This document shows positions 2,977-60,197 of a DNA stretch of 64,000 nt, one piece after another. Position 1 is the stretch's first letter; each line of letters opens with the position of its first letter. The DNA is taken from positions 97,916 through 161,915 of the forward strand of contig JADLHJ010000054.1 of NCBI GenBank assembly GCA_020848835.1, written 5' to 3'. Below the pieces are notes generated by a model. That model worked only from the letters and a program-made list of their open reading frames with translations. It made no database searches and was not told where the DNA came from. This DNA comes from Candidatus Hydrogenedentota bacterium (GTDB lineage: Bacteria > Hydrogenedentota > Hydrogenedentia > Hydrogenedentales > SLHB01). Both the position numbers and the translations under genes were made by a program.

Positions 2977-2988
2977 AGGGAGAGTGCG

Positions 2989-5382: not shown

Positions 5383-5456
5383 TCGCACAATTACTATCGG
5401 AACAGGTGCGCTGTGGTTACTTGGCTTTGGGGACATCCATCAGAAGGGGTTTTATT

Positions 5457-13860: not shown

Positions 13861-14769
13861 ATGTTGGTTCAAAAGAAGGGATGCGGTTACGGAAGAATTG
13901 TGACCTGCATCACAGTAATCCTGCTGGCCGCAGCGCCGGTCGCATTCGGGAACTCCCTCGCAGTCGCAACCGACCGATTTTCGTACGAAGGGTCCGTGAC
14001 GGTTTTTGCGTCACTCGCAGATTACTCGACCAACACGGGCGGGACCCTGTACGCGATTCCAAGTTTCACAGATGGAAGCACAACATATGATGGCAGAGAT
14101 CTCGGATTATTTGTTGTGCAAGACTATGCCAATTACTATACCGACGCGAACATTTTCCTGACGGCATGGTACTACACGACAAGCCCGAACGGTGCCGGTT
14201 GGGGAAATCCAAATAACACGAATACGGGCTTCGTCCAGGTGTACGATGCGGACTCGAGTACCGATACCTCGCTGACCGGTGGCTGGACTTCCCTGGATCA
14301 ATTTGTCTTGTCACTCACGGGTGTGAATGCCGACTACGCGAACGATTCCGCCCGATTCTGGCCTGCGCCGGCGGTCGGTGGTGCGGGCAGCCTCTCGGAT
14401 GGCACCTTCCTTAACTATGAACTCAGCCTAACTGCCAACTTTGCCAACTCAGCGACACTCAACGGAGATGGGTTATACGAACTCAATGAGGACCCCACCA
14501 GCGTGGCTGGCACTCTTAGCGGCGTATTTGTCAACCCCGACGATGGGCGTGTCTTCGTTTTTGATTACACGTTAAGCATGGACAGTTGGGTGTATGATCA
14601 GGATTTGGCAAGTTCACTTCAGGGGCCCTACCCGTACGTCGAAAGCTACTTTGCTGGAGAGTTGCTCGCTCCTGTCCCGGAGCCTGCGACGGTCACGCTG
14701 ATGGGTCTAGGTCTTGCCGGGATTGCAGCCGCTCGGGGCATTCGATCCCGGTTTGCGTCGAAGAAGTAG
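13861..14769 (+). CDS. PEP-CTERM sorting domain protein 4
   Basis: Signal ILLAAAPVAFG; C-terminus APVPEPATVTLMGLGLAGIAAARGIRSRFASKK. Confidence 0.92.
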   Translation: MLVQKKGCGYGRIVTCITVILLAAAPVAFGNSLAVATDRFSYEGSVTVFASLADYSTNTGGTLYAIPSFTDGSTTYDGRDLGLFVVQDYANYYTDANIFLTAWYYTTSPNGAGWGNPNNTNTGFVQVYDADSSTDTSLTGGWTSLDQFVLSLTGVNADYANDSARFWPAPAVGGAGSLSDGTFLNYELSLTANFANSATLNGDGLYELNEDPTSVAGTLSGVFVNPDDGRVFVFDYTLSMDSWVYDQDLASSLQGPYPYVESYFAGELLAPVPEPATVTLMGLGLAGIAAARGIRSRFASKK

Positions 14770-19800: not shown

Positions 19801-20122
19801 CGAGGCCGAGTCCTTGCAGACCGTTAACGCAATCTTAACAAAGACTACCAATCCCGATGCAATGTACCTGCGCGGTACCTTGTTGTTGGCAAAGCAGCAG
19901 TACGGCGATGCACTGCGAGATTTTCAAAATTCGGCAAAGCTTACGGGAAATTCCTCGGCGCAACTACAGTTGCGGATGGCGGAGGCTTACTTTGGACTGA
20001 AAGAAACTAACGTCGCACGACTGTACGTGGAACAAGCTAAGCAGCAGGCAACAAATGGCGAACCGGTAGACCAACGTAGGCTTGCGGAATTGGCCGCGCA
20101 GCTGAACGGATCACCGCAATGA
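16892..20122 (+). CDS. large N-anchored TPR protein (PrsT-like)
   Basis: N-terminal TM followed by many helical TPR-like repeats; stop overlaps the exosortase start (ATGA). Confidence 0.85.
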   Translation: MRIRNVVVGTILLGLTAVSLGAVLWYFKGRELVAFRRAEQAFTNQDWSEAKAQYGWYLAQQPDDVDALVRYAETSAKVLSNRTINVRDAARAYRRVAVLRPEDEAAAIRAATFCEDHELWLDLQSCGQQFSEKFPGNADFTFWRALAEEKLGNVDLALTQYEALLQSPSYPLKAMSALVALLTQRGRMEDAQARLDAAIESKPDSAVLRAYRGDHFIQRNQLVDAEKQIDEALRLGRELPEVLLAAGRLHIARRDWNKAKEFAESYLKSRPDLEAYLLYCQATIGRGAEGDAQAASLLKTADPKFLADHPQLYFILSEIQFGLNQLDDARATADAYRLAHPDHVAALEYFDARLLHAAGQVDEAIVKLRRVVQGAPDLRVAAQRLVAICLETRRARDRELARETLERYMRANPSDAQAIALWRMTFAQPTLEVTIETAKSIHSDDGVPAATMIDIASKLLRDGKENAHKTETVALAQALLEKAYQGDPAVPDLLLARVECYLAGGNTSQAEEALANVPENGNAESELRLAQARLALAQADMDRAQEFVMQEMQRTNATETDRIRWAQLFADNGQLDIGLTILRDGIGRENSPASAAESAIEQVALAIRTRSYSRALELIASLAPQFSENPETIQRLVIQQLAVAEALASSEDDRDRKEAESIVLDVCQRHPDNTLAKALHARLKFATDPPDVEGAEELCAQLRTSGAADSRVYMLSAEIAARSGQDALAYSFASKAAELAPYDSHALFLSGKAQLQQGRYGEAAASLAKALRIDPATIDILRPLARAYAGAGRFAEFDATLSKIESEQPLSALQETELRLLRSWAAICRRDWTNAEQISRSVVERDNANTEALRYLVIALASTGKIADAEILVSESVPASRDAQVWCELAVRHLVSERPPNILKASTAFTKALAIRPNYPLALIGLIEIEQQTGNAGRALGLCNRFIETSPDDVGILLKKAQILAGLPDREAESLQTVNAILTKTTNPDAMYLRGTLLLAKQQYGDALRDFQNSAKLTGNSSAQLQLRMAEAYFGLKETNVARLYVEQAKQQATNGEPVDQRRLAELAAQLNGSPQ

Positions 20123-21036
20123 ACTCGTCGTCGGAACAAGCAAACAGCTTTCCAACTTTGGCTGACGATCGCTCGATGCCGAGTCGCCAGTCACTTTTAC
20201 TGTGCGCAGCGCTGGCCATCCTGCTCGGATTGATCTTCTGGGAAGCGATTCATGAAATGCTCTACAACTACGGCAAGAAAGACTCGTATTATTCGCACGG
20301 TTACATCGTTCCTTTCATCAGCCTGTATTTTGCATGGAAACAACGTGCGGAATTGCAGAACGCTGCTCGCAAACCAGCGACGTTGGGCTTGTGGATTATC
20401 GCCCTATCTTGTTTGATGGTAGTGCTAGGCGATTTTCTTGAGTTCTTCGTTATCCAGCAGTTCGCGTTGGTGTCGGCGATAGCGGGGATCGTGATGGCTA
20501 TCTGGGGCAAAGAGCATGCCCGAATTTTGTGGTTCCCGCTCGCATTTCTGCTCTTTATGATTCCAATGCCAGGGTCCATTACTCATGCGCTGGTGTTACA
20601 CGTAAAGATTCTGGCGATAGACTGCACAGTGTGGGTCGCGCGCTTGTTCTCCCTTCCAATGCTCCGCGATGGGTCTTACATAGCATTCGGAAACGACCGC
20701 CTGCTTGTCGGCGAAGTTTGTGGAGGTCTCCGATCGTTGATCGCCTTGCTCGCGTTGGGCTCTGTCATTGGATACATGAGTAAGGCGAGCAATTGGGCCC
20801 GCATTACTCTTTTTCTGGTATCGGCTCCGGTAGCGATCTTCGCGAATGTAGCGCGCATTTTCTTTCTTTGCATAGTCGGTTACATTTGGGGAAGTTCCGC
20901 AGCAACAGGAAAGGTGCACGACATCTCCGGTATCGCCATCTACGCGATAGCGGCTGTCGCCCTTTCTTGCGTCGAGTTTCTGTTCCGCGCGGCGGGCGGC
21001 CGTCAAGCAGCGGCCGAAACAGGTGATACGCAGTGA
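20119..21036 (+). CDS. xrt: exosortase (EpsH family), catalytic residues intact
   Basis: YYSHGYIVP, VGEVCGGLRSL (Cys), ANVARI (Arg), KVHDISG (His); about 8 TM. Confidence 0.93.
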   Translation: MNSSSEQANSFPTLADDRSMPSRQSLLLCAALAILLGLIFWEAIHEMLYNYGKKDSYYSHGYIVPFISLYFAWKQRAELQNAARKPATLGLWIIALSCLMVVLGDFLEFFVIQQFALVSAIAGIVMAIWGKEHARILWFPLAFLLFMIPMPGSITHALVLHVKILAIDCTVWVARLFSLPMLRDGSYIAFGNDRLLVGEVCGGLRSLIALLALGSVIGYMSKASNWARITLFLVSAPVAIFANVARIFFLCIVGYIWGSSAATGKVHDISGIAIYAIAAVALSCVEFLFRAAGGRQAAAETGDTQ

Positions 21037-21659
21037 AACCAGGCGCGAAAGTCTTGATTTTGCTGGCGCTTGGTGCCGCGGCCCATTTTGCGGTCGGAGC
21101 AGCACAGTCACGCCCAAGCACGAATGCGGCAATATCACCGCTCACTGACATACCGGCATCGGTCATGGGGTACCGTCAGACAGGTCCAGATATTCCGGTG
21201 GATCCTCACGTGTTCGAAATGTTGGACTTTCCGGACATACTAATGCGTGATTACACGTCGCAGAACGGTATTCCGGTGCAACTTACCGTGGTGCGGTCGG
21301 GTACGACCCGACGCAGCTTGCATTTTCCGGAGGTGTGCCTCACCGGCCAAGGATGGGAGGTCGAAAAACAGTATCGCTCTCCCGTGAGCGGCTCGTTCGT
21401 TGCAAATCGTCTGGAGATCTTTAAAGGTGAATACGAACAAGCGGTGTTGTACTGGTTCATGACCGGAGTTCGCCCCACGGACAGTTACGCGAAAAATTCT
21501 ATGTACTGGGCGAAGGAGCGCCTCCTGTTTCGTTCGCCGAGGACGATGATGGTGAAATTAAGCACGACGGTCGGCAGCGCAGGCGCCGAATCCGCGTTTG
21601 GATACCTTGAGGATTTTGCCCAAAACCTGACACCGATACTGCAGAAACGCTTCGAATAG
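21033..21659 (+). CDS. epsI: exosortase-associated EpsI protein
   Basis: N-terminal TM, LMRDY, SLHFPEVCLTGQGW, AVLYWF; coupled to xrt (GTGA overlap). Confidence 0.88.
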   Translation: MKPGAKVLILLALGAAAHFAVGAAQSRPSTNAAISPLTDIPASVMGYRQTGPDIPVDPHVFEMLDFPDILMRDYTSQNGIPVQLTVVRSGTTRRSLHFPEVCLTGQGWEVEKQYRSPVSGSFVANRLEIFKGEYEQAVLYWFMTGVRPTDSYAKNSMYWAKERLLFRSPRTMMVKLSTTVGSAGAESAFGYLEDFAQNLTPILQKRFE

Positions 21660-21668
21660 GAGTTTCTC

Positions 21669-26212: not shown

Positions 26213-26274
26213 GACTGTCGGTAGCGGTTCTTGGGGCAACAAAACTCGCGGGGAAAACAAAAAGGAGAGTGTGT

Positions 26275-27676: not shown

Positions 27677-27813
27677 TATTTCGCACGATTGGGCCTTTGG
27701 GGAAAAGCTGTATTTCTGATTTCCTCACAGGCTCGCTACATGAATGTCTTGTAGGGAGAGCGTTATTGGCAACCATCGCACGCTTTGGATGTACAGACGT
27801 AAGAGGAGAGGAC

Positions 27814-30800: not shown

Positions 30801-31776
30801 TACCGTGGACAACGTTGCGCCTACCGCCGCGATAGCCCTGTTGGATCCGAGCCCCACCAATGCGAACGCGGTGCGCTTCAGCGTGCAGTTTAGCGAAAAT
30901 GTCGCGCCATCATTCTCGACAGGGGACCTGACAGTTTCAGGAACCTTGGCGATCGGTGCAACGGTTGCCATGACGGGTTCGGACCCAACCTACACCGTTA
31001 CGGTGACTCCCTCGAATCCAACAGCCGATGGAACTATCGGTCTGACGATTGGATCCGGCATCGCGGACAGCGCAGGAAACGCGTACGCTGGCGGTAGCTC
31101 GCCGAGTTCCTACACAATCGAAAACGTTGGTCCATCTATCTCCATTGGAGCGCCTTCAGCAACCGCGACACGTACGGGCGCGGTTTCATATACGATCACC
31201 TATGGCGGAGCAGACTCAATTGGCCTGCTGGCCTCAAATGTATCTGTCGTTTCAACCGGCACGGCCTCCGGCACCGTCGCAGTTTCCGGGAGCGGGACGA
31301 TCGCCCGAACGGTAACAGTTTCCAGTATTTCCGGCGACGGAACGCTGCGAATCTCTATCGCGCCTGGGACCGCTTCCGATATTGCCGGGAACCTGGCACC
31401 TTCAGCGCCCTCGAGCAGCCCGTTCGACGTAGACAACACTGCGCCGACAATCACAGTAAACGGCTCGCTCATGGAGTACATTGAAGTTGGCACGCCGTAT
31501 ACCGACGCAGGTGCAACGGCGGTCGACAGCAGGGATGGCGACATCACGGCGCAAATCACCACAACCGGTGCCGTGAATTGCAACGTAGAGGGTGCACACT
31601 TTCTAACGTATAACGTTTCGGACAATGTGGGAAACGCAGCCGCGCCTGTTCAACGCACGGTAGTCGTTGTTCCACCGCTTCCCGATGACCTCCCTGTGGA
31701 CACGCGCTTCGTTTTGATCGCGCTTCTGCTAGTTGGAGTTGCGCAGGCGGGTCGACGCATTCGTCAGAGCCCGTAG
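27814..31776 (+). CDS. secreted M64 (IgA peptidase-like) metallopeptidase with Ig-like repeats, DUF5011-like domain and C-terminal anchor
   Basis: LVILGDGYT, IIHEFGHTFAGLADEY (28954), NCLMK, FCPVC. Start uncertain: TTG 27814 after AGGAGAGG, ATG 27862, or track start 27697. Confidence 0.88.
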   Translation: MRFETREFQHGSQIRHMNHPYHIGRFQLGFLAGPPATAKSSFVICLIALHFLSLCSFAGIAGHASSRRTTPDDHRQYWQLVIGYDETAMTILSAAEIAPMKKQVITPGLDGAVGIVPYSVDWLDASGKSLYTGSLDLPIGQRLFLGPDMPCKGLVPKQSVIVVRIEGPAAKANFTSLRLRRSAGKALDYLSPDMPSSLTKHEVVLPVGKIKRIGEKEAPPPGPLSVAKIQDTGSDTNRLVLVILGDGYTAANLSAGSFTTAAQNALTAFGNKSPWDVLFNGTNVYRVDVESNQQGADREDGQNGTLVDTYFNSTFWTSGIDRLLTIDFTGRSRAISAADAYVGVGVWDYLFVLVNSTVYGGSGGSIGVSSIHASASEVIIHEFGHTFAGLADEYTTAYPGYPAGDGEPNVDFDYALANLKWSAWVDTGTPLPTPDTSTYNGVVGAFQGARYLTTGIYRPTRNCLMKALGTAFCPVCKEAHVVDYFDIVSLADTLQPTAGTTVDVPPAGTLVSVSPLSIPGLTYQWSIDGSPLGGATGSSVTVYATDLPTQAATLQLNISYPTSLVRSTSFAENYSWTLNKIGDITAPTAGITLIDSNPTNANAVQFGVQFSENVSPTFTAADIAVAGTLAAGASTAVSGTDPNYVITITPANPTADGTIGITIGSAVSDAAGNPYAGGSSPTVYAIDNAAPTISIGSPSSAITRTGPISYPVAYGNADAVTLSTSDVSLLTTGTATGTVSVSGSGTTTRTVTIASISGNGTLAIAIAAGTASDLAGNMAPAPASSTTFSVDNIAPTATVTLEDANPTNADSVHFGVRFSENVAPTFTAADLTVTGSLASGATTSISGTDPDYTVTVTPANPATDGTIGLTVGSGITDGAGNAYTGGSAPAIYTIENIGPTISIGSPSASVTRSGPVSYAVTYGGADSITLSPSAVSLIATGTASGTISVSGSGTVTRTVTISSIAGNGTLRISIAAGTAADNAANLAPAALASTPFTVDNVAPTAAIALLDPSPTNANAVRFSVQFSENVAPSFSTGDLTVSGTLAIGATVAMTGSDPTYTVTVTPSNPTADGTIGLTIGSGIADSAGNAYAGGSSPSSYTIENVGPSISIGAPSATATRTGAVSYTITYGGADSIGLLASNVSVVSTGTASGTVAVSGSGTIARTVTVSSISGDGTLRISIAPGTASDIAGNLAPSAPSSSPFDVDNTAPTITVNGSLMEYIEVGTPYTDAGATAVDSRDGDITAQITTTGAVNCNVEGAHFLTYNVSDNVGNAAAPVQRTVVVVPPLPDDLPVDTRFVLIALLLVGVAQAGRRIRQSP
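29560..31431 (+). repeat. three tandem 624-bp (208-aa) A+B Ig-like units
   Basis: Units start at 29560, 30184 and 30808 (D(I/N)xAPTA..PTNA..V.F.V.FSENV ... TISIG.PS...TRTG...D.AGN.AP). Confidence 0.9.
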
Positions 31777-33537: not shown

Positions 33538-36500
33538 CTACTGGGCGCTGTCCCCCCGTGCAAGTGACGAGTCGCGGCCCTCTTTCGTTGTTTCAGTACC
33601 CGTCTTGGCGTTTTGGATTTCGCGAAGTTCGGTGCGCCAGTGAAGTTCGCTCGGTTCCAAGTCAATTGCCTGAGTCAGGTACTTAATCGCGGAGGCTTGA
33701 TCACCCGTCGCGCCGTACGCTCTCGCCAGCGTCGCATAACATCGCGCATTCTTGGGCTCGGTAGTGACCGCCTTTTGGGCTAGGCTGACCGCCTCGTCCA
33801 ATCTCTTGCCTTGCTCGCAAAACGAACGTGCCAATCCAATTTGCGCGGCGGTCAGATTGGCGTCACGTTCAAGCGCATTCTGATAGTTCACTTCTGCAAG
33901 GGCATAATCCCGTTCCCCTTCGGCAATCGATGCGAGCGCAACAAACGCTTCAGGCTTGGCTGCCGGAAGCCGCACAACCGTCTCCAATTCCTCACGCGCT
34001 TTGGCACGATATTTTTCGTTCCCGGTTCGCATCGCCAGCGCCTGCCAGCTTAGAGCAAGCACCGTCCGCTCTTCTGTTGCGTTTTGCGGTATGAACGGCG
34101 TAACTCGCTCAAGCCAACCAGCGGAGTCCATTTCGTTTGGAAGTCTGAACGTCGCAATACACGCCCACAACATTCGAGACGCGGTGGAACTCTGTAGCTT
34201 TGGCGACAGCAACGAAGCGACGTCGTCTACACGGTTGGCCATCAACAGGCTTTGCGTTCGCGCTGCTTCACTTTGCCCATCCGCATCCTGACTAGTTTTG
34301 TCAGCTACGAGATAGGGCATGGTCGCGCGATTCCTACCCAATAAACGGCCAATGCGTTGCTTCGCCGCTACGTCGAGCAGATCACCTGCGTTGGGCAACG
34401 ATCGAGAACGTCGGAACGCCTCGCCAGCCGCTTCAAATGATTCGACCCACCGGCCCGCCGCAGCGAAGGATTCGGATGCCAGCTCGGCCGGTTCCACATC
34501 GGTCGGAAAATCCAACTGGGCTTGTGCAGCAACTTCGGCGGCTTCATCATGCTTACCCGCTTGCCCCAAAAGCCGAACGAGCAGCATCCTCACCGGCAAG
34601 TAGGTAGGATGGGCTTGAATGAGTTGCCGGAATTGTTCGACCCTGCGGAGGGGGTCATCCTGTGGTGTTTCATTCAATACTTCGAGCGTTTCTTTTGCTG
34701 CATCGAATCGACCAGCATCCTCCACGCCAGATATCATGATGGGCATCGCCAAAAAGCGCGTCACCAACTCCTCGAAGAGCGCGCGATCCCGCCGCATAGC
34801 GCGAAAGAGCGCTTCGCTCGGACAAGCGGCAAGGGCCTCTTCAGCGAGGTCCAGCGCGGCGCTCACATTCCCTGAACGCATCAGAAACGCCAAATACTTT
34901 CGCCACGCGTTGGGGTTTGCCTTGTTACCCTCGATCGCAGCCCGAAATAGTCTATCGGCGTCGTCTGCATTGCCGTAATAGCCATGGAACTCCGCCTCGA
35001 GGACCTCACGCGCTCCGGAATCGAGTTGCAATTGCCCCAGAACGTCGAAAGCAGCCTTCGCTTCGTCCAGTTTTCCCAGTGACCCAAATAAGTCTAGTGC
35101 AAAAACCACTTCTGCGATGGATGGATTGTCTTCAATCAGCGTCTTGGCGATCTCTTGCGCATTCGGAAGATCGTCGTTCATCCGATACAGCTCTGCCAAC
35201 AACAGATCCGCCGGTGGACCATCTCCACGTTTCGGATTCGCCGCAAGCAGCTTTTCGATTGCCGCGGCATAGCGACCCTCTTGCGCCGCGACCATTGCGG
35301 AAACCTCGTGAGACGCGCGATCAGAAACTTCACCGTTCGCCAGTATCGCCGCCAATTCATCGTACGCTCTCGATATATCGCCGCGGCTGTACAATATTCG
35401 CGCCAAATCGAGTCGCGCACTATTGTTCTTGGGCGCCAATCGAACGGCGTTTTGCAGATTGGAGAGTGCGCCTTCCGAATTGCCGATCCGTTCAAGTGCC
35501 GTGGCGATGAGCAAGTATTGCTTGATGTCGAGAAATCCTGCTGCGGTGGAAGTGTCCTGTAACAACACCACTGCTTCGGCCGCGGCCTTTTCTGAATGAT
35601 CGTTTTGGAGTAGCCAACGCGCTCGCGCGGTCCGCCACGTGTAACCAGACTCGCCCGTCAACTCTTTCAATGCGCTGATCGAACTGTCTATAAGCGCGGC
35701 ATTCTCCCACGCCGCCTCGGATTCCAACACGCGCGTGAGTACCATCGCATTCTTCGGTTCAACACTCGTGACATAATCCGACCAGGCCAAAGCAGCCTCG
35801 GCGGATCCACTTCGTTCGAGGTACTGCGCAATCGCAAACTTCCAATCCGGTCCCTCCCCCGCTACCTTGGCTGCCCCAGTTAGAAGTTCCAATCCACGCT
35901 GGGGATCTCCTTCCGCATTCGCAGCGAGCGCCTGTTCCAGCGCAAGATTAGGAGTAGAGCCGAATGAGCGCAAAGCGTACGCGTAGCATGCATCGGTCTG
36001 CCCGAGGCTGAAATCTCTGCTGATTCGAGCTAGACGAAGCACCGTAGGTTCGGGCAGTGCCTCCTCTCCCGCCAAAGCTGCACCGAGTTTCTCCCCCGCC
36101 AAAGTGGTGTCGCCACGTCGAGCAAGAAACTCTATCAGTAAGGGAAGCGTTCTAGGTTCCATGGGCCGGATGGATTGAATCTTCTCCACAAGGTCCCATA
36201 GCCGGCTCCGCTCCGCGTCCGATAATAGTTCGAGGTCAACGCCAGGGATTTCCGCCGCCGCTGCTGCGAGATAAACGTCTTGAGGTGAACGAAATAGCGC
36301 TTGCTGCGCCAGCGCAGTTGCGGCCGTCACGTTGCCGCGCGCTGAAAGTACTTGGGCGGCAAGCAACAGCGGTTCACCCCAAAGGGGGGACATCTGCGCC
36401 GCAAGGCTGCAGGTCCGCAGCGCCAGGTCGCTCTCACCGTTTCGCTCGTATGCCCTCCCCAAGTAGTAGGTGAAATACGGATTCCGCCCATCCAACTCGG

Positions 36501-37659
36501 CGTACTTCTTGCAGTTTTCAACGAGATCCCGCGCCGGAATTTCTTTATCTAGGTAGAACACGCTTAGAATTTCCCGCCAGGCAATCGCAGCTCGGTCGTC
36601 GCGCTTTTCCAGGTGCTCAACGACTCCTTTAACCTGCTCCCACTTCTCAAGCTTTACGTGCGTCAAGCCAAGGATTCCTAACATCTCGGAGTCGCCAACA
36701 TCCGCTGGTACCTGATCCATCAATTTCACCACTGCGCGAGTGTTTCCCGACTCGAAAAGCCGGCGCATTAGAAGTCGTTTCAGTTCTATCTCCGAAAATC
36801 GTCCAGCGGATTTTGCGAGCATATCGAGGTTCAGACGCTGAAGCTCGAATCTATCGCCGGAGAATACAGAGAGGCGTGACAATAGGTTGTCGATGAGTTC
36901 AACAGTTTTCGTATTTGTAGAGTTTGTAACGGGGATCGCGGCGGCCCGCTTCGTCCAGTCCACCGTCTCGTCACGCTTTCCGGCGAACTCATGGGCAATG
37001 GCTTGCACGATGTGATATTCGGCAGAACCCCGGTCAAATCCAGGCACTGTGTCTGGATACCTAAGAATCTCGTCCACCGGCTTTTTCATTGACCGAATCA
37101 CGGAAAGCGCAAGAATGTGATTCTCCACGTCAGCAGGTTCCAATGCCGCGACTTTCTTGGCATCTCCTAACGCCGCATCATACTTTTGCATTCGCATGTA
37201 GGCTTTTGCTCTTGCCTTCAACGCGTCAACATCGTCAGGCTTTTTTGCCAGTATGTCCTCTGCCAGGGAGATAGTCTCGACGCCGTAGCCGATGTCGGAG
37301 TACACACCGACCAGCTCACGCTGAGCATCGCTGTTGTCAGGTTGTATACTGAGAATCTGGCGAAGATGGGAAATAGTCTGCTCAAAGTGCTTTCCATTTG
37401 GAAGGGGGACCTCGCGGCGGGCCTTCGCATATTCAAGCATTGCTTCTACGTCGGTATCCAACCCAAATCGCTGCAAGTAGCGTCCAATTTGGTCCAACGC
37501 GACCTCATGGTCACCAACCTTCGCCGCATCCATTCCACGCTGACGACACTCTAGCGCTCGCTGCTTTAATACATATTGGCGCACGAGCAAGGCTGCCCCC
37601 CCCGCAGCGAGGAGAACTACGAAAGCACTTGCGACGATTATGAGACGACGATAACGCAC
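33538..37659 (-). CDS. giant N-anchored TPR protein
   Basis: GTG start, N-terminal TM, TPR repeats throughout 1373 aa; last gene of the - strand operon. Confidence 0.87.
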   Translation of the reverse strand: MRYRRLIIVASAFVVLLAAGGAALLVRQYVLKQRALECRQRGMDAAKVGDHEVALDQIGRYLQRFGLDTDVEAMLEYAKARREVPLPNGKHFEQTISHLRQILSIQPDNSDAQRELVGVYSDIGYGVETISLAEDILAKKPDDVDALKARAKAYMRMQKYDAALGDAKKVAALEPADVENHILALSVIRSMKKPVDEILRYPDTVPGFDRGSAEYHIVQAIAHEFAGKRDETVDWTKRAAAIPVTNSTNTKTVELIDNLLSRLSVFSGDRFELQRLNLDMLAKSAGRFSEIELKRLLMRRLFESGNTRAVVKLMDQVPADVGDSEMLGILGLTHVKLEKWEQVKGVVEHLEKRDDRAAIAWREILSVFYLDKEIPARDLVENCKKYAELDGRNPYFTYYLGRAYERNGESDLALRTCSLAAQMSPLWGEPLLLAAQVLSARGNVTAATALAQQALFRSPQDVYLAAAAAEIPGVDLELLSDAERSRLWDLVEKIQSIRPMEPRTLPLLIEFLARRGDTTLAGEKLGAALAGEEALPEPTVLRLARISRDFSLGQTDACYAYALRSFGSTPNLALEQALAANAEGDPQRGLELLTGAAKVAGEGPDWKFAIAQYLERSGSAEAALAWSDYVTSVEPKNAMVLTRVLESEAAWENAALIDSSISALKELTGESGYTWRTARARWLLQNDHSEKAAAEAVVLLQDTSTAAGFLDIKQYLLIATALERIGNSEGALSNLQNAVRLAPKNNSARLDLARILYSRGDISRAYDELAAILANGEVSDRASHEVSAMVAAQEGRYAAAIEKLLAANPKRGDGPPADLLLAELYRMNDDLPNAQEIAKTLIEDNPSIAEVVFALDLFGSLGKLDEAKAAFDVLGQLQLDSGAREVLEAEFHGYYGNADDADRLFRAAIEGNKANPNAWRKYLAFLMRSGNVSAALDLAEEALAACPSEALFRAMRRDRALFEELVTRFLAMPIMISGVEDAGRFDAAKETLEVLNETPQDDPLRRVEQFRQLIQAHPTYLPVRMLLVRLLGQAGKHDEAAEVAAQAQLDFPTDVEPAELASESFAAAGRWVESFEAAGEAFRRSRSLPNAGDLLDVAAKQRIGRLLGRNRATMPYLVADKTSQDADGQSEAARTQSLLMANRVDDVASLLSPKLQSSTASRMLWACIATFRLPNEMDSAGWLERVTPFIPQNATEERTVLALSWQALAMRTGNEKYRAKAREELETVVRLPAAKPEAFVALASIAEGERDYALAEVNYQNALERDANLTAAQIGLARSFCEQGKRLDEAVSLAQKAVTTEPKNARCYATLARAYGATGDQASAIKYLTQAIDLEPSELHWRTELREIQNAKTGTETTKEGRDSSLARGDSAQ

Positions 37660-37678: not shown

Positions 37679-40108
37679 TTAACTTAGCGTGGCGGGAAGA
37701 GTACCCACCCCATATTTTGACAGGTGTGATGACAGCCAGACGGCTCTGGCGAGCGGGCCAAACTTGGCATACTCTTCTGGACAATTCGAAAAATGCTGCC
37801 CGTCGGCGTCCGCGTCTTCTGGGTGCAAGTCACGGTACCCACCTACCGACACTGAGGTCACTGAGAAAACCGAACGAATAATGTCTTCCTTGCGTGCCCG
37901 GTTAAAAATCACCCCCATCGGAAGCGCGTTGAGCAATTCAAGATGGTGCATCGCCTGCCGGATGACACCGCTCGGATCATCCCGCGAAACCACCATGATG
38001 ACACCATCCGTGCTGGACGCGAAAATGGATGAATCGTGGGGACCCGGTACTGGACCGGTATCCACCAAAATGACGTCGTATCCTGGTCTAAGTCGCTCTA
38101 TAAGTGCTCGAACAGACGCTGGCGAAAGCGAGCTAGTCGGTGCGTGCCCGTTACCAAACGTCGGCATGACATGCAGGTTCGTGATGCCAATATCTGCAAC
38201 ACAGTTCTCCACATTTTCACCCCGCAGTGCATCAGCCAGTCCGAGCCCGTATTCACTCTGCAATGCCAGGCCGTCTTCAAGGTCCTGTTCATTGATATAC
38301 CCCAGACGCAGCAGACTTTGTCCAAGGCGTATGTTGGAATCTTGAGCAAGCGCAAGAGCCCGTGTGAATTCCGCGTCTGTAATAACGTTGTACTCTCGAA
38401 ATACGTGTCCAAGCTTTCTCCGGCCCACAGCGTCCGTGCTTCGCGTTAATCCTCGTCCGATTAGGTCACCATCGATAAGGAGCGTTCGTGCGCCTGCGGA
38501 GGCAAATGATATGCCCATCGCAAGCGCAACACTGGTCTTACCGGTCTGACTTGTGCCTCCTGTGATTGTGAGTGCAAGACCACTGTTCGACACGATCTGC
38601 GTTTGGAGCATCATCCGAATGCTGTGCACGCAGTGAGCGGCACGGGCAATGTCGGCGGCATCAGACAATTCAATGGACAATTCAGGGAGTGCGCCAAGAA
38701 GTCTCGGGCGAACGGCTTCCGCATCCACAATATCGCGGATCCTCGGATTTAAGAGACCAAGCAACATCACGAACCCGATTCCTAAGCCACTACCCGCCAA
38801 CCCGCCAAGTATCGTAACTTGGGCTTTCCGGCTGGAGTTGGAAGGTTCGATTGGCATAACCGCATCGTTTACTACAATTACACGCCCTTTCAAATTCTGG
38901 GTAAGTAGCGATTCCGTGGTAATTTGTTCTAATCGCGATTTCACCAAATTCAAGTTGTCCTGAATTCGGGACTTCTCCGCCTGTTGTTTCCCGACCTCCA
39001 AATTCTTCTGTCCGAGTTCAAGAACTCTAGGCTTGGCATCGTCCATCAGCTTCTGCAGCTGTCGCACTCGCATCTCGGCGCGCTGCGGATCCAGAATTGC
39101 AATGCGTCCGGATACCGGGTCACCCGCCGTCAACGTGGCGCCCCCGACAGGGCTTTTGCGATAGACCTCGGCATACTTTTCGATCTCTTGCTCTTGCGTC
39201 TTTAACTGCTGAACGGCAGTTCGATACTCCTTGTTGCTTTCGGTACCGACGTAACGAGCGGCGTATTGGTCGACGAGTCGTTGCAGGCGTCCCTTCTCAT
39301 CGACGAGTTGCTGCATGCGGGGGTCTGTTGCGGCGATCTGTTCGACAGTTAGTGATGATGCATCATCCGATTCCTTCGTGCTGGACTTTCCTAATGCCTG
39401 TGCCGTAGCCAGGTCAATTTTCGCGCTTTCTAATTCTATTTCGAGTTCCTGAAGCCTTGAGAGTGCAAAGGCATGCATCTCGCCAAGATTCTCGCTGCCA
39501 AATTCAGTTGCAATATTAGAAATTTTTGTTTCAATATCTACCATTTGGATATTCAAATCGTTGATTCTCTTCTCCAAAGCCTCTAACCGTTCACCGCTTG
39601 TCGTCGTGTCAATTTCGCTATACAAGATGAGATATGCATCAACAAGAGACTTCGCCGCCGCTTGAGCAAGTTTGGGGATCTTGTTTTCGCACGAAACGAA
39701 AATCAGCTGACTTCCCTTGGGTGAAGTCACGGTTATGTTCTTCATAAACTCCACAATATCTTCCAGCGAGGCCTTTCCGCCCGCATTCTTCCAGGTCTCG
39801 CTGCCAATCGCTTCCTCGACGACGCGGCGGCTTTTCACCAGCGAAATCTGCGTTTGGATGAACGAATCGAACATTGGCATCATGGCGTTTTGCTCGTTTT
39901 CGTACAGCACTTTCGGAAGGACCGGGGCGACTCGAATTATCGTCTCGCTCGCGTATTCCGGTTGTATTGCAAAATAGCCAACGGCTGCACCCATCCCACC
40001 CAAAAAGACGCCGAGTACTGTCGCGAGCAGGTAGCGTCCGCGTAACAGCCTGTGTACCAAGAGCAGTGGGTTTTGGTCTGATTGTGGGGCAGGATTCTTT
40101 GACAGCAT
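37679..40108 (-). CDS. wzc: Wzc-like polysaccharide co-polymerase / BY-kinase with MshEN-like insertion
   Basis: TM-coiled coil-TM; Walker A GGTSQTGKTS, A' LLIDGDL, B ILVDTGP; ATG 40108 (the track start 40228 overlaps epsI). Confidence 0.88.
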   Translation of the reverse strand: MLSKNPAPQSDQNPLLLVHRLLRGRYLLATVLGVFLGGMGAAVGYFAIQPEYASETIIRVAPVLPKVLYENEQNAMMPMFDSFIQTQISLVKSRRVVEEAIGSETWKNAGGKASLEDIVEFMKNITVTSPKGSQLIFVSCENKIPKLAQAAAKSLVDAYLILYSEIDTTTSGERLEALEKRINDLNIQMVDIETKISNIATEFGSENLGEMHAFALSRLQELEIELESAKIDLATAQALGKSSTKESDDASSLTVEQIAATDPRMQQLVDEKGRLQRLVDQYAARYVGTESNKEYRTAVQQLKTQEQEIEKYAEVYRKSPVGGATLTAGDPVSGRIAILDPQRAEMRVRQLQKLMDDAKPRVLELGQKNLEVGKQQAEKSRIQDNLNLVKSRLEQITTESLLTQNLKGRVIVVNDAVMPIEPSNSSRKAQVTILGGLAGSGLGIGFVMLLGLLNPRIRDIVDAEAVRPRLLGALPELSIELSDAADIARAAHCVHSIRMMLQTQIVSNSGLALTITGGTSQTGKTSVALAMGISFASAGARTLLIDGDLIGRGLTRSTDAVGRRKLGHVFREYNVITDAEFTRALALAQDSNIRLGQSLLRLGYINEQDLEDGLALQSEYGLGLADALRGENVENCVADIGITNLHVMPTFGNGHAPTSSLSPASVRALIERLRPGYDVILVDTGPVPGPHDSSIFASSTDGVIMVVSRDDPSGVIRQAMHHLELLNALPMGVIFNRARKEDIIRSVFSVTSVSVGGYRDLHPEDADADGQHFSNCPEEYAKFGPLARAVWLSSHLSKYGVGTLPATLS
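38258..38416 (-). other. MshEN-like c-di-GMP-binding domain inside Wzc
   Basis: KLGHVFREYNVITDAEFTRALALA (24 aa) + QDSNI (5 aa) + RLGQSLLRLGYINEQDLEDGLALQ (24 aa). Confidence 0.75.
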
Positions 40109-40127
40109 ATTACAACGCTCGCTCTGG

Positions 40128-40823
40128 TTACGCTTCGGGTACCGATTCGATTCCAGACTCAACCACTGAAATCCAAGGCAACGCTGCCTTGAGCAAAAAC
40201 TCATACTCAACGTTTCGCTCTGCATCACTTAGTGCAGCATCCACAATAAACTGAATACTCGCGGCGCCGAGATACTTTGACGACCCCTCGCGCGCTGCAA
40301 TTTCCAACGAACTCATGTCGGGCGACGTTTTTCGGTTCGGAAGTACTGTGAAATGAAGCACTGCCAACTGCGCACTGTCCCCCGCTGACTCATAAGTAAA
40401 TCCATATTCGGTGGCGTCTACCGCACTCCCGTCCACTGCAAGCGAGACAGGTCGGGCGGTGCGCTGCGTCCATCCCTGGTTGTGATAGCACACGGGAGGA
40501 TAATGACCTAGCAGGCTCCTCACGTCGCTGCCGTGAACGATCAGCAATGTCGCCGACCGCCCTGTTTCGAGATTGCGATAGGTTCTACTTAACGATACAT
40601 TCGCATCGAGTATGCGAAGCGCACCCGCGGAGATCTCGCGGTCAACGCCGACCCAAGGACCAAGACCATAGGGAACGCTGGCGATCGCTTCGCGGATTCT
40701 GGCGTGATATGCGGCAACGCCGGCAGGCACTTGCTCACGATGGACTCTTCCAAGATACACCCCTGTTAGCATTAGCAGGAGGATCAGGGGTGTTACTATC
40801 TTAAACATAGCAATTGCTCTCAA
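40128..40823 (-). CDS. epsI: second exosortase-associated EpsI-like protein
   Basis: N-terminal TM, LSRTY, LGHYPPVCYHNQGW; directly follows the exosortase-like fusion. Confidence 0.82.
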   Translation of the reverse strand: MRAIAMFKIVTPLILLLMLTGVYLGRVHREQVPAGVAAYHARIREAIASVPYGLGPWVGVDREISAGALRILDANVSLSRTYRNLETGRSATLLIVHGSDVRSLLGHYPPVCYHNQGWTQRTARPVSLAVDGSAVDATEYGFTYESAGDSAQLAVLHFTVLPNRKTSPDMSSLEIAAREGSSKYLGAASIQFIVDAALSDAERNVEYEFLLKAALPWISVVESGIESVPEA

Positions 40824-40838
40824 AATATTCGTGCCGAC

Positions 40839-43454
40839 CTAGCCCGCAGAAGCTGGGCTGGCCGCCTCCTCAATTCCGGACTTCGCGGTAAAGTCTGAAC
40901 CCGCGATCCATCTGGCTACGTGCACCATTGCTGCTAGTCCACATACCACCGCGGGTAGCGTGGCAACATCACTCAGTCGGCTTACCCGATTTGCAGACTC
41001 AAGGGACAGATAACCATATATCGCCGCAGTGGGGATTAGCCGGACTGTGTTCAGCGCAAACGCCAGGACTGGACTTGTGAGGACCAGGAAGACTCTCATT
41101 CGCGTACCTACCCGCGCACTGAACGCAAAGGTCAGGCAGACCAGCGTCAAGGCGAATATGATTCCGACTCCGCCAAACGCTTGCGCGACGTCAACCGATA
41201 CACCGTTAATCTGCATGACCCTACTATCCAAACTCACAGACTCACCAACGAAATGCAAGACAACAGCAGTGGAGCGTGCCGTGAAATCTTGTATTGGCTG
41301 GAGAATTCGCAACTGAATGAGTCCTGGTATGGGTATGGCGAACATCAATACGAGAAGCGCTGGCCATAGTCGCCGTGGAAGCTCCGTACCAAGCACAGAG
41401 ACGGCACAAGCTATCGTGATGGTGACTGCACCCATATACCAAAACGATTGAATGAGCTGCGCATCCCCGATCGAGTATAGAATCCAACCCGCCGCGGCGA
41501 TTATTGGGGCGAATATCGTTCCTGACCTTCGTGATAAAAGCGCGCTCTCCCTCCTCGTCCATATCAACCAGGCGGCGGCAGGAATCGCGATCAGACCGAA
41601 GCTGGACTGCAGATCCCGCGTAAGCAAACGCCAGACGTCCCAATATGCATCAGAGGTTATCCACATCGACGCAAGTACCAATGCACACGCGGCGATAAAA
41701 TAGCGTGGCCGCCAATACTGCCTTGCATCGAGCTGCCTCGTTCCAGGATTCTGTGGCTTTACCCGTGCGGGCTTTAAGACCGCGTCGCGACCCGCCCGGG
41801 TCGGTACTGCTTCTTTTCTAAAGCCAACACCAGCCTGTTGAACTCCCTCAACCACAGATGCCGCCTTCACAGACCACGTTTCCTGCTTGACACGCGCACG
41901 GCGCGGAGCGGGATCACCGGGATTCTCGAGCACCCGTTGTATATGCGCGACAAATTGCTGTGCGTCCTCTGCGATCTCGACGTGCGCTTCATACTTAGAC
42001 AGCTCATCAAACGGCGTGCTTACAATCGGGCGGCCAACAGCGAGGTATTCCTTTAGTTTCACGGGATTACATGCCTTGATCCACGCATTTTGATTCCACG
42101 GCATAATCAGCACATCGCACGCCGCCATATATGCTGCCACTTCGGTGTATGGTTTGCGGCCAAGCATGTACACATTCGATAAATCGCACCATTCCTCTGG
42201 CAAAGAGCAGCCACCGACTAGCACAAATGAGCAATTCGGCATCGCGCGAGCAACACTTAGAAAAAGCTCAGGATCAAACGTGTGCGCATCGATTCCGCCG
42301 ACAAATCCAATTCTTGGTCTGGGAATGTCCCGCACGTCATTGGGTTCGGTCGTAGCGCCACGCCCCGCGGCCTCGAACTGATCGAAATCAACCCCATGAT
42401 CAACGAATAACGCCGACCGGCATTCGGAAGTTTCGCTTTCATACACAGAGGTAGAACAGAAAAGCGTTACGTCTGCGCTCTGCTTAAGCGTCAAATCGTA
42501 AGCGCGAATGCGAGCGGGATCGACGCCGGGATAATGCTCAAAACGGTCCGTGCGCTGATACACGAGCCCCGCGGCAGGTATCTTCTCGAAGACTTCTGCG
42601 GCCGGTGGGCATGCGACCCACAACAATGGGGAGGAAATGCCCATGTATTCCGCCGCGTCGCGGACTTGCTCGATTAATAGGGCCCTTGCCAAGGAGGTCT
42701 GGTGGAACTTGGGGATGGATACGGGACTCAATACGGCAAAGTTTTCGGAAACTACCTTGAGTCCTCTCCCCCAACTCTTTACTTTGCGAGCTACCCGCCC
42801 AATAAAAACGCGACCTTCACCGACACGAGGAGTACGCATGCCTATGGAGTTCACATACACCACCGGCATGTCCCGGCTAAGTTCCCGCATCATTTGGACG
42901 TCATAGTGACCGCGGTTGTGGTACCACCAGTCCACGCCACCAAAACAAACGATGCCATCAACTTTGCCTTTGCGTGGCCGTTCGATGAAGTCGGAAATCG
43001 CTCTGCACAATTCTGGCGACGCCTGTCGTGAAATCCTGTCCGTAGCCTTGAGTCGATTCAGTTCGGTATCGAGACGAAGCGCCAGTTCGTGCTCGTCCCA
43101 GGCAACGGATATAAGTCCACGGTCGCCAAATTGACGTGCCGTCGCGACTTGGTGATCATTTCGCGTCTCGCGAAGTACGCCGCGACGAGGCATGACAACG
43201 ATTGGCTTACCCAATTCGAGCGCCGTCAATATGGTGCCCATACCAGCATGGGCAACAATTACGTCAGCCGCCTCAACGAGTTCGCGAAGCTTCTCGGGAG
43301 CGACAAACTTCTCGAACTCAATGTGTTTCGGGAGGTATGCTGTATTCCCCACCTGCGCAAAGATACCGGTCGCATTACGCTCGCCAGCCCACTGATCGAC
43401 TGCTGCCACCAATCGGTCAAATGGCATCTGAGCGCCTACAGTAACCAGGATCAT
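40839..43454 (-). CDS. triple fusion: PssE/Alg13-like GT28-C + GT4-type glycosyltransferase + degenerate exosortase-like domain
   Basis: aa1-158 MILVTVGAQMPFDRL..HAGMGT..RNDHQ; aa~165-545 PRIGFVGG..PVKLKEYLAVGRPIVST; aa580-871 about 8 TM with NTVR but AFGG in place of the xCxG motif. Confidence 0.88.
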   Translation of the reverse strand: MILVTVGAQMPFDRLVAAVDQWAGERNATGIFAQVGNTAYLPKHIEFEKFVAPEKLRELVEAADVIVAHAGMGTILTALELGKPIVVMPRRGVLRETRNDHQVATARQFGDRGLISVAWDEHELALRLDTELNRLKATDRISRQASPELCRAISDFIERPRKGKVDGIVCFGGVDWWYHNRGHYDVQMMRELSRDMPVVYVNSIGMRTPRVGEGRVFIGRVARKVKSWGRGLKVVSENFAVLSPVSIPKFHQTSLARALLIEQVRDAAEYMGISSPLLWVACPPAAEVFEKIPAAGLVYQRTDRFEHYPGVDPARIRAYDLTLKQSADVTLFCSTSVYESETSECRSALFVDHGVDFDQFEAAGRGATTEPNDVRDIPRPRIGFVGGIDAHTFDPELFLSVARAMPNCSFVLVGGCSLPEEWCDLSNVYMLGRKPYTEVAAYMAACDVLIMPWNQNAWIKACNPVKLKEYLAVGRPIVSTPFDELSKYEAHVEIAEDAQQFVAHIQRVLENPGDPAPRRARVKQETWSVKAASVVEGVQQAGVGFRKEAVPTRAGRDAVLKPARVKPQNPGTRQLDARQYWRPRYFIAACALVLASMWITSDAYWDVWRLLTRDLQSSFGLIAIPAAAWLIWTRRESALLSRRSGTIFAPIIAAAGWILYSIGDAQLIQSFWYMGAVTITIACAVSVLGTELPRRLWPALLVLMFAIPIPGLIQLRILQPIQDFTARSTAVVLHFVGESVSLDSRVMQINGVSVDVAQAFGGVGIIFALTLVCLTFAFSARVGTRMRVFLVLTSPVLAFALNTVRLIPTAAIYGYLSLESANRVSRLSDVATLPAVVCGLAAMVHVARWIAGSDFTAKSGIEEAASPASAG

Positions 43455-43981
43455 AGGACGGCTCCACGGTAATATGGCCCAGAATCAAGCTCTAGGTGGG
43501 GCCATTGGGTAAGCCAAAGATCGGCATATAACTCGACCTTTTGGCCGGCTTTGGACAGGCGCTCCACATTTGCGATGCTGTCAATCCAAACGGTGTGGGC
43601 GCCGAGAAGTTTACCCAAGCGTATAGCAAAGAAACCGGGGGCTGCACCGGTCGAGACGACAAAGTCTGGTCGTTCGCGGATGAGAATCACTAGCAACTGA
43701 AAAGCCTGAACGATCAGCTTGAGTTTGTTCCATTCCGTGGCGTCCGCAACGGCATATAGCCGCATACCCGGAACGTCTGACGCGTACATTTTATCAACGG
43801 TCACAAACGTGACATCTTGGCCGCGGAAGACATGCGCGATGCGCAACATCTGCACCCAATGGCCGCCTCCGGAGGACACGGCCAGAAACTTCTTCTTGCG
43901 CTGAGGCAAGCCAGCCTCTGGAGGTGGATTTATAAAGCTTGTCGAAAGCGTACGCTCTACGTCTCGCTCGGTCTGCAACAT
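43451..43981 (-). CDS. pssD: PssD/Cps14F (Alg14-like) glycosyltransferase subunit
   Basis: SSGGGHW, VSTGAAPG, IDSIAN, LTQWPHL; stop overlaps the fusion gene start; ATG 43981 after GGAG preferred over track start 44200. Confidence 0.88.
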   Translation of the reverse strand: MLQTERDVERTLSTSFINPPPEAGLPQRKKKFLAVSSGGGHWVQMLRIAHVFRGQDVTFVTVDKMYASDVPGMRLYAVADATEWNKLKLIVQAFQLLVILIRERPDFVVSTGAAPGFFAIRLGKLLGAHTVWIDSIANVERLSKAGQKVELYADLWLTQWPHLELDSGPYYRGAVL

Positions 43982-44904
43982 TCTTCGGTACTCCGCCGGA
44001 TTCCCCGCAGTCTCAAGAAAATTCTGCTTCGCGTGCACCGCACCCCACGAAGAGGGACAGACGCACGAAAACGCGGTAATCCTTGCCGCAGGAACCTGAC
44101 AGAGTGCAGCCTTAAAGTCGCACGCAATCAATTCGCCTAATGGGCCAATTAGCGACTCGATGTTGTAGGGCCTACAGATCCCATCTCCGCGCAAAAACAT
44201 ATCGGAGATCGCGAACGTAACCAGTCGAGCCGAAAGCTAACCCTCTTACCCCAAGGATTACTACGACATTTATCCAAGCAAGCGCACCCGACAAGAGTAT
44301 AACTCATTACTTCCCGTTCGGCAATCGCTAAATTCTTACCTTGCTGAGCTTAGCCTGACCAACCAATGTTCCGCAGCCGCACCATACCTTGTCATGACTC
44401 GCCAAACCTCATGGCGTATACAAAGCTCAAGATCGATGTTCGGAACCGCCCGGGCTCGTACGCTTTCTCAACCACATATTTAGTGTGCAATTTTCGATCC
44501 AGTTCTTCGAATTATGCAAGCAATCGCAATCAGGAAAGTTATGGTGCCATTACGAAGTAAAGCCACATCTAGCCATAGTCAGGGGTGAGTAATTACTTGT
44601 CGATAATGAGTAACTCTTTTCCGCGCGAATACCGGGGGGGCTCTACGCGTTCCGAGCACTAGGGAAGTTTTGCAAGTATTTGGGGTAAAACGTTGTTGTC
44701 CATAGACTAACGCGCAAGGGAAATCAGCACCAAGAGGCCGCGCCAATCGTGCGTAAAGCGCGGGATTTTCTGCTGAAATAACCGATGCGTCACTCATGTT
44801 GCCGATATCAACTAGAGTACGATAACATACAGGTAGGAAAGAGGTTCCGCCACTGTGTGCGAAATTTTCGGCTGTGAATACCTCTGGTTGGCTGTTGGAT
44901 ATTA

Positions 44905-60167: not shown

Positions 60168-60197
60168 GCCGTCGAGTCGACAGTAAGCCGTGCGCCA

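Follow-up and report, generated by a model that had tools for sequence, protein, structure and literature searches.

A glycosyltransferase-fused exosortase module with a degenerate active site in an exopolysaccharide cassette of a Candidatus Hydrogenedentota bacterium

A stretch of 64,000 nucleotides from a Candidatus Hydrogenedentota bacterium (assembly GCA_020848835.1, contig JADLHJ010000054.1, positions 97,916 to 161,915; the whole stretch is referred to as the window) contains, at 40839..43454 on the minus strand, one continuous reading frame for a protein of 871 amino acids. It joins two glycosyltransferase (GT) modules to an exosortase-like membrane domain. The gene is an orthologue of an undescribed group of GT-linked exosortases that lie in a conserved exopolysaccharide cassette. 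In the window copy, the catalytic Cys and His of the exosortase domain are replaced, and on balance this domain is probably a lineage-specific pseudo-exosortase, retained to serve as membrane module in an exopolysaccharide GT complex.

A preliminary description of the gene had proposed a PssE/Alg13-like half-GT, a GT4 and an exosortase-like domain. This architecture was confirmed with Pfam and NCBIfam profiles. Glyco_tran_28_C (PF04101) matched residues 1-128 (E 1.3e-10), Glyco_trans_1_4 (PF13692) residues 380-511 (E 5.6e-16, 59.5 bits with a cut-off of 27) and Exosortase_EpsH (PF09721) residues 599-821 (E 2.6e-28, 99.5 bits with a cut-off of 25.7). Glycos_transf_1 (PF00534) was also matched with 41.8 bits (cut-off 26.4), and the GT4-type matches together extend from approx. 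residue 380 to 523. On the side of NCBIfam, the PssE model (NF041548) covered residues 2-130 (E 2.9e-29) with 101.9 bits, under its equivalog cut-off of 120. The generic exosortase model TIGR02602 covered residues 612-825 (E 1.6e-20) with 73.7 bits, under the cut-off of 105.55, and the signature model TIGR04178 gave 17.3 bits, under 23. The best named subtype for the exosortase domain was XrtA with 73.1 bits, under the cut-off of 208, and no cut-off of a named subtype was reached (XrtA, B, C, D, H, J, N, Q, T, V, W, X, Y and the cyanoexosortases). The gene product is a genuine three-module inner-membrane protein.

Near-identical sequence was found in at least 20 public runs of 12 studies; those with a label are metagenomes from wastewater, activated sludge, digesters and biofilms. 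Contigs of nine runs from nine studies were aligned to the gene and covered both domain junctions as well as all key codons. The preliminary description had named stops or frameshifts at the junctions as a sign of an assembly artefact; independent contigs spanned both junctions without an indel or joint. Over the 281 codons of the exosortase domain, these nine runs also had no stop, and none of them changed codon 619, 760 or 825; at codon 760, every run that covered it was free of variants. Run X5 was identical to the window throughout its covered part. A variant contig of run X11, locally 94% identical, kept Phe760 and carried an additional G761S beside it. The exact protein had no entry in the gene-position index. 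Only a few short fragments of the gene came from metatranscriptome runs. Expression cannot be claimed from so few, and they might stem from carried-over DNA.

Exosortases have three invariant motifs, namely, Cys-x-Gly, Asn-x-x-Arg and His-x-x-x-Gly (Haft et al. 2006, PMC1569441). In the archaeosortase ArtA, conserved residues are reported to be critical for the catalytic activity (Abdul Halim et al. 2018, as cited in PMC6098224). Two of the three family motifs are destroyed in the window copy, Cys-x-Gly and His-x-x-x-Gly, and Asn-x-x-Arg is intact. Every substitution listed in the preliminary description was found in the alignments and codons (Cys to Phe at 760, His to Ser at 825, His to Phe at 619, with N802-x-x-R805 kept). 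H825S requires two nucleotide changes. The Cys, which is reportedly among the critical residues of ArtA, was present at the motif position in all 37 comparison sequences, and the window copy alone has Phe760 there (AQAFGG).

The substitutions were then placed among the 32 alignment columns with a conservation of at least 90% in the 37 intact sequences. The window copy deviates at 12 of these near-invariant columns, and members of the same subfamily deviate at 0 to 3. Around the Cys motif the changes are G744S, E758Q, C760F, N761G, R764G and M765I, around the His motif H825S, D826R, G829D, W830V and A836V, and near the N-terminal motif E616Q. Ten of them thus come on top of C760F and H825S, and apart from E616Q and A836V, these ten lie inside the Cys and His motifs or a short distance upstream of them. 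Conserved positions that were kept include G656, G663, G689, P708, P710, Q722, N802, R805 and L806. Given the loss of two of the three invariant motifs, the module almost certainly has neither Cys protease nor transpeptidase activity.

Relatives were collected with one genome per species. The scan found 71 loci, from which open reading frames (ORFs) were extracted and onto which the cassette proteins of the window were mapped. Six of the 71 are Hydrogenedentota loci with the fusion, which is complete in four (L001 from DDYW01, L002, L003 from JBMNGZ01 and L009 from OW818658) and cut by contig ends in L004 and L005. The four complete fused ORFs comprise 909-916 codons (stop to stop) and are 55-58% identical to the window protein. 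Approx. 17 Phycisphaerales/Planctomycetota loci contain PssE, GT4 and exosortase as separate adjacent genes. The gene order is common to both groups and runs PssD, PssE, GT4, exosortase, EpsI, Wzz/tyrosine kinase and giant tetratricopeptide repeat (TPR) protein. PssD orthologues were located immediately upstream in all related loci examined; in the window, the stop of PssD overlaps the start of the fused gene (ATGA). EpsI is kept downstream in the related exosortase-linked cassettes examined, with the exception of L064 and L052. In L011 and P0158, only GT4 and exosortase are fused, and Sneathiella and other loci have PssD-PssE-GT4 without an exosortase.

Among 1.84 billion representatives searched exhaustively, P0002 (883 amino acids, 55%) was the only full-length cluster with all three domains and P0015 the only fragment, and a word-index search returned seven further fused fragments (P0152-P0158), some of them labelled just 'exosortase' by NCBI or JGI. 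Fused proteins are already present in databases under the label 'exosortase' only; the literature searched contains no description of the fused family. The preliminary description knew of no described fusion of this kind, and no paper on a GT-exosortase fusion, on Hydrogenedentes exosortases or on a pseudo-exosortase was found in the searchable literature.

Cys, Arg and His are kept in all 36 other members of the GT-linked group, that is, 26 locus sequences and 10 database proteins, the latter including the generic exosortase P0001. The relatives carry AEAC(N/D)G, NVxRLxPT and FH(D/T)xSGW or close variants, where the window copy has AQAFGG, NTVRLIPT and VSRLSDV. The intact orthologues passed PF09721, TIGR02602 (116-141 bits) and TIGR04178 (50-60 bits) and stayed below every named Xrt subtype cut-off from XrtA to XrtY (115-147 bits for XrtA with a cut-off of 208). 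As they match no named Xrt subtype, they can be considered as an unnamed exosortase group. The preliminary description had left room for a loss of Cys and His as a shared design of the fusion, and this did not hold in view of the 36 intact members: the dead state is absent from every relative found and is therefore not an evolved design of the family. When only the C-terminal domain was used as query, the word index gave a single weak match because the domain is too diverged for it. A scan of JGI metagenomes with patterns of the dead domain gave no relative, and hence neither a sister lineage with the same loss nor one that branched off before it was found. That the window copy is a distant paralogue was rejected, since the seven-gene synteny is identical and the GT4, PssE, PssD, EpsI and kinase distances equal those among other Hydrogenedentota.

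Residues 547-871 were modelled with AlphaFold2 on an alignment of 10 sequences. The predicted structure is a multi-helix membrane fold (predicted local distance difference test score, pLDDT, 79; predicted template modelling score 0.70) with a small beta hairpin ahead of the former Cys motif. Positions 760, 805 and 825 are placed at the start, end and start of three consecutive helices. The model agrees with the topology that Haft predicted for exosortases, in which the motifs lie at helix ends at the outer membrane face (PMC1569441). Members of the family are expected to be polytopic membrane proteins of approx. eight helices, with each of the three motifs at an end of one of several consecutive helices, and the model and hydropathy of the domain agree with this layout. 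Its strongly hydrophobic windows are found at the same positions as in the intact P0002, and the membrane-helix pattern, N-x-x-R and the Gly and Pro residues that define the fold are all preserved. An exosortase structure was not found in the PDB, either by sequence or by fold.

The exosortase domain of the window copy is 41-45% identical to its orthologues, compared to 55-85% among the orthologues themselves. For GT4, the corresponding values are 66-70% and 66-83%, and in PssE and GT4 the window protein is as close to other Hydrogenedentota lineages (62-70%) as those are to each other. Tajima relative-rate tests were carried out with the Phycisphaerales outgroups L015, L008 and L023. In the exosortase domain, 43-51 unique changes were counted in the window copy vs. 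15-22 in the orthologue, with p-values of 1e-3 to 4e-5 for L015 and L008 and a weaker result for L023. The same tests detected no comparable or consistent asymmetry for PssD, PssE, GT4, EpsI and Wzz/kinase. The exosortase domain alone has evolved 2-3-fold faster than its orthologues.

Codons 591-871 showed 20 polymorphic events in the metagenome runs, 11 of them synonymous and 9 non-synonymous. The latter were all conservative (L/V, G/S, M/L, A/V, T/A, three times I/V and M/I). With 73.7% non-synonymous sites, the ratio of non-synonymous to synonymous polymorphism (pN/pS) was approx. 0.29 (binomial p = 0.006 vs. neutrality, 20 single nucleotide polymorphisms, SNPs). Among the polymorphisms listed for the GT part, pN/pS was approx. 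0.12, and the difference between both parts was not significant (Fisher p = 0.24). The exosortase domain is under purifying selection in the population data, and given this ratio and the conserved fold it is not drifting freely. It has the properties of a pseudoenzyme: it is homologous to active enzymes, its catalytic residues are lost and it is under purifying selection, as estimated from 20 SNPs only. Simple decay, as outlined in the preliminary description, would have combined relatives with an intact triad and relaxed selection on this copy. The data come close to this with the intact relatives and the 2-3-fold rate, but the polymorphisms point to purifying selection.

On the reading as a pseudo-exosortase kept as a membrane module, the ancestor would have been a bifunctional fusion of two cytoplasmic lipid-sugar GTs with an active exosortase. 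Among the members found, the active site is destroyed only in the window lineage, a Hydrogenedentota-like wastewater and activated-sludge bacterium. The cytoplasmic PssE module would pair with PssD as Alg13 does with Alg14. Together with the GT4 module, PssE/PssD would add sugars to the undecaprenyl diphosphate-linked exopolysaccharide repeat unit at the inner membrane face. The dead exosortase fold would serve solely as the membrane-embedded module that keeps the GTs with EpsI and the Wzz/kinase export machinery. PEP-CTERM cleavage and sorting would probably be left to an intact XrtA-like exosortase and its EpsI, which are encoded at 20119-21659, and the loss of sortase chemistry probably came about because this paralogue tolerates it. 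For the window copy, the scaffold proposed in the preliminary description seems partly right, as the domain is kept in frame and under purifying selection; the fusion did not evolve for the dead state. For the active orthologues, it is reasonable to suppose that the exosortase holds the GTs where sorting takes place. PEP-CTERM recognition or glycosylation by the window copy is speculation.

Several points weigh against this reading. The label 'dead' is derived solely from the loss of motifs. In this small sample, a pN/pS below 1 may stem not from a positive function but from selection on a translated membrane domain that would do harm if it misfolded. Compensation by XrtA is deduced only from both systems lying in this window. 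No sister lineage above approx. 45% identity in the exosortase domain was found. Finally, PssE and GT4 are separate proteins in the Phycisphaerales and can therefore do without a covalent membrane anchor, a point that weakens the case for an anchor role.

It is because the GT modules work as separate proteins there that plain decay is a serious rival, albeit an unlikely one. The fused module would have been made redundant by the intact XrtA-like exosortase, would have lost its function altogether and would be a leftover with neither a scaffold nor a recognition role; its frame would persist as it is short, as misfolding is harmful or as epsI and wzz further downstream would be expressed less well after a truncation. 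In line with this, the loss is unique to the window lineage, the acceleration is confined to the exosortase domain and pN/pS is higher there than in the GT part, albeit not significantly. However, no stop or indel was found over 281 codons in the nine aligned runs, and non-synonymous polymorphisms are significantly depleted and all nine conservative. Moreover, structural Gly and Pro residues and N-x-x-R are kept, the changes cluster in the two catalytic motifs and the partner epsI is not accelerated.

A further reading starts from the substrate-recognition module named in the preliminary description. The dead exosortase would be an adaptor that still binds PEP-CTERM tails via N-x-x-R and EpsI and presents these proteins to the GTs, or presents a lipid-linked glycan to them, and would in this way couple glycosylation or glycan attachment to sorting. 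The kept N-x-x-R and fold, the normal evolutionary rate of EpsI and the purifying selection on the domain would fit such a role, which is nevertheless rather improbable. The GTs are cytoplasmic and depend on nucleotide sugars, but exosortase motifs are predicted at the outer membrane face (PMC1569441), and it is therefore hard to see from the topology how a bound PEP-CTERM tail could be glycosylated directly. Furthermore, the dead state is conserved in no relative, and neither the window nor the Hydrogenedentota loci have a dedicated substrate gene beside the cassette.

That the domain is still catalytic with another chemistry, by a Ser nucleophile or in an activity unrelated to peptide cleavage, is very unlikely. 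Ser825 and Ser744 stand at formerly invariant positions and the domain is under selection, but the nucleophile is replaced by Phe, the loss of E758, N761, R764, D826, G829 and W830 resembles a collapse of the pocket and not its re-tooling, and the pattern is seen in no other family member. An origin of the fusion or of the Cys and His losses by mis-assembly, chimera formation or sequencing errors is in effect already refuted, as the sequence, junctions and key codons recur gap-free in independent contigs (nine runs, nine studies), the same fusion occurs in six other assemblies and the inactivation needs at least 12 separate substitutions.

The features of the gene and its surroundings are compiled in Table 1. 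The 5' end of the listed PssD ORF is probably set too far upstream, since homology begins at approx. residue 95. The window as a whole is a large exopolysaccharide/PEP-CTERM island with genes for a UDP-glucose dehydrogenase, a Wzx-type flippase, GT2 glycosyltransferases, methyltransferases and a deacetylase. The fused gene thus lies in a typical exosortase context of EpsI, exopolysaccharide genes and PEP-CTERM proteins. The intact exosortase at 20119 is probably the working sortase for the PEP-CTERM proteins of this genome, and its relatives are abundant in Hydrogenedentes (72-92% for P0272-P0275).

Table 1. Features of the fused gene, its cassette and the intact exosortase system (positions within the window)
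Feature	Position	Strand	Evidence or remark
PssE/Alg13-like (GT28 C-terminal type) half-glycosyltransferase, residues 1-160	42975..43454	-	PF04101, PssE E 2.9e-29; 62-66% identity to orthologues
GT4-type (GT-B, TuaH-like) glycosyltransferase, residues 161-545	41820..42974	-	PF13692, PF00534; 66-70% identity to orthologues
Linker of variable length into first membrane helix, residues 546-590	41685..41819	-	9-31% identity among orthologues; pLDDT <50
Exosortase-fold membrane domain with degenerate active site (pseudo-exosortase), residues 591-871 and stop	40839..41684	-	PF09721, 99.5 bits
Codon 760, TTT (Phe), at the invariant catalytic Cys of C-x-G	41175..41177	-	VGEV-C-GG -> VAQA-F-GG
Codon 825, AGC (Ser), at the invariant His of H-x-x-x-G; motif Gly (codon 829) now Asp	40980..40982	-	KV-H-DISG -> RV-S-RLSD
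Codon 619 (Phe), YS-H-G -> SS-F-G	41598..41600	-	Alignment with intact exosortase 20119..21036
Asn802-x-x-Arg805 motif, kept (N802-T-V-R805)	41040..41051	-	Alignment
PssD/Alg14-like partner of the split GT	43451..44200	-	NCBIfam PssD (NF041549), residues 106-236, E 2.1e-18, 67.1 bits, cut-off 110
EpsI-like (DUF3485) exosortase partner	40128..40823	-	PF11984, E 2.7e-11; directly downstream of fused gene
Wzz chain-length determinant fused to tyrosine autokinase, next cassette gene	37679..40228	-	Profile matches; synteny
TPR protein of 1373 amino acids, last conserved cassette gene	33538..37659	-	Profile matches; synteny
Intact XrtA-like exosortase, Cys/Arg/His present	20119..21036	+	TIGR02602 179 bits, cut-off 105.55; XrtA 187.5 bits, under cut-off 208
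EpsI partner of the intact exosortase	21033..21659	+	Module kept in L072, L073
PEP-CTERM protein, VPEPAT tail	13861..14769	+	PF07589, tail scan
Four other VPEPAT-type PEP-CTERM proteins	2953-3804, 4194-4919, 5406-6212, 26269-27192		PF07589, tail scan

The intact exosortase belongs to a four-gene module (16892-24593, plus strand) of a TPR protein of approx. 1075 amino acids, the XrtA-like exosortase, EpsI and a second TPR protein of approx. 975 amino acids. This order is kept in other Hydrogenedentes contigs (L072, L073), often with AlgX/SGNH-like and PEP-CTERM genes nearby. Three of the PEP-CTERM genes adjoin a gene for an Rce1/CAAX-type intramembrane protease (7312-8103, minus strand; PF02517, E 3.8e-16), which is from the family of the myxosortases. 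Also within the island, a Ser/Thr protein kinase of 833 amino acids is fused to a WD40 beta-propeller (8332-10833, minus strand). Between both exosortase systems lies the gene for a secreted-type protein of 1359 amino acids (27697-31776, plus strand), in which an M64 (IgA-peptidase-like) domain is combined with several bacterial Ig-like domains. Directly after exopolysaccharide GT, methyltransferase and deacetylase genes follow genes similar to non-ribosomal peptide synthetases, with adenylation and peptidyl carrier protein domains and then condensation and adenylation domains (58359-62200, plus strand).

Within the cassette, the Wzz/kinase (37679-40228, minus strand) has an apparent MshEN-like insert for binding of cyclic di-GMP at residues 605-657 (NF053729, 34.6 bits with a cut-off of 38), between the Walker-A region (approx. 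residues 553-590) and the remaining kinase domain (662-780). If this insert is real, cyclic di-GMP would directly control chain length and export.

Other domain combinations were observed for the GT4 and exosortase modules. Among the GT4 homologues checked in Phycisphaerales, no strongly hydrophobic stretch was found beside the GT4 domain. Close GT4 homologues of 627-822 amino acids (P0004-P0011) have C-terminal extensions of approx. 200-400 residues, most without a Pfam match and with few strongly hydrophobic stretches; several share (I/V)LL(A/S/D)GG...SPL...LDLW(L/I/V). In P0009, the GT4 is instead joined to a Poly_export/SLBB (Wza-like) domain. An obligatory fused membrane anchor in this GT4 family was rejected, as GT4 has a gene of its own in the Phycisphaerales and P0004-P0011 have largely soluble extensions. 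In L064 (14030-16021) and L052 (16015-18012), a sugar-1-phosphate nucleotidyltransferase domain similar to mannose-1-phosphate guanylyltransferase is located N-terminal to an intact exosortase. Both genes adjoin PssD, PssE and Wzz/kinase and stem from metagenome-assembled genomes of Sedimentisphaerales and Pirellulales.

The Phycisphaerales cassettes end with a protein of approx. 250 amino acids whose C-terminus consists of (A/H/P)IPLP(G/S)AG, a hydrophobic helix and RRRR (L023:19229-20035, L011:19470-20228, L024:13518-14270, L025:18021-18767, L067:21228-22055, L068:19275-20024, L008:22427-23227 and L036:22516-23298). This tail was matched by no curated model and appears to be a variant sorting signal, which makes the protein a candidate for a dedicated substrate of the GT-linked exosortase. 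No equivalent was found beside the Hydrogenedentota cassettes or in the window. Upstream of the cassette, a spondin-domain protein (NF038123, E 1.5e-34) with an IVPAP(S/G)...RRRR tail is encoded in L011 (4712-5608), L023 (4843-5727) and L067 (6744-7679).

Compared to known exosortases (EpsH; XrtA, the EpsI-fused XrtD and XrtW), the window protein shares the fold, the HMM (hidden Markov model) family and the multi-helix layout. It likewise has an epsI gene downstream, an exopolysaccharide locus with chain-length determinant/kinase and TPR genes, and PEP-CTERM proteins in the genome. Unlike these exosortases, it has two N-terminal GT modules, lacks the invariant Cys and His and scores under the NCBIfam cut-offs. 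PssD/PssE-type enzymes add the second sugar to a lipid-linked precursor. As in PssD/PssE of Rhizobium, Cps14F/Cps14G of Streptococcus pneumoniae and eukaryotic Alg14/Alg13, an Alg14-like gene is located upstream and the Alg13-like half is N-terminal in the window, and both halves of the fused WelK glucuronosyltransferase match the window PssD and PssE by HMM. However, both score under their equivalog cut-offs (PssE 101.9 vs. 120, PssD 67.1 vs. 110), and PssE is joined to GT4 and a membrane domain and not to PssD.

iRhoms and Derlins are catalytically dead homologues of rhomboid-family intramembrane proteases, and iRhoms are ancient and conserved and have shown functions. The window domain is similar in being a membrane protease fold without its catalytic residues that is retained under selection. 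The folds are unrelated, however, and the loss in the window is confined to one lineage. For the active orthologues, type IX secretion offers a possible analogy to an exosortase-GT coupling: there, PorU/PorZ-type proteins attach cargo to a lipid-linked glycan (PMC7468200), and a peptidase for a C-terminal sorting signal is combined with dedicated glycan genes. The PorU/PorZ proteins are unrelated to exosortases.

Exosortases are widespread in biofilm- and floc-forming bacteria, and their chemistry is unsettled. They were experimentally uncharacterised as of a 2018 review, and neither the acceptor of the cleaved protein nor a one-step transpeptidation is established in the literature. PEP-CTERM systems matter for flocculation in activated sludge and wastewater (PMC9850573). 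As the dead state is peculiar to one lineage, its general significance is moderate. The window copy can be regarded as a natural separation-of-function allele, in which the GTs and EpsI are conserved, the sortase site is gone and an intact paralogue is located 20 kb away; it is a convenient handle on non-catalytic roles of the exosortase fold. The broader GT-linked family is the more valuable lead, with an exosortase physically tied to lipid-linked glycan synthesis. Where exosortases are fused to GTs (Hydrogenedentota) or tightly linked to them in an operon (Phycisphaerales), the GT product may be the acceptor or a required partner. In a further, doubtful scenario, the GT-exosortase cassette would build a lipid-linked glycan acceptor for cleaved substrates, and the dead domain would be an iRhom-like adaptor that hands acceptor or substrate, via EpsI and PEP-CTERM binding, to XrtA. 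If it is true that the cassette builds the acceptor, this would answer what the acceptor of exosortases is.

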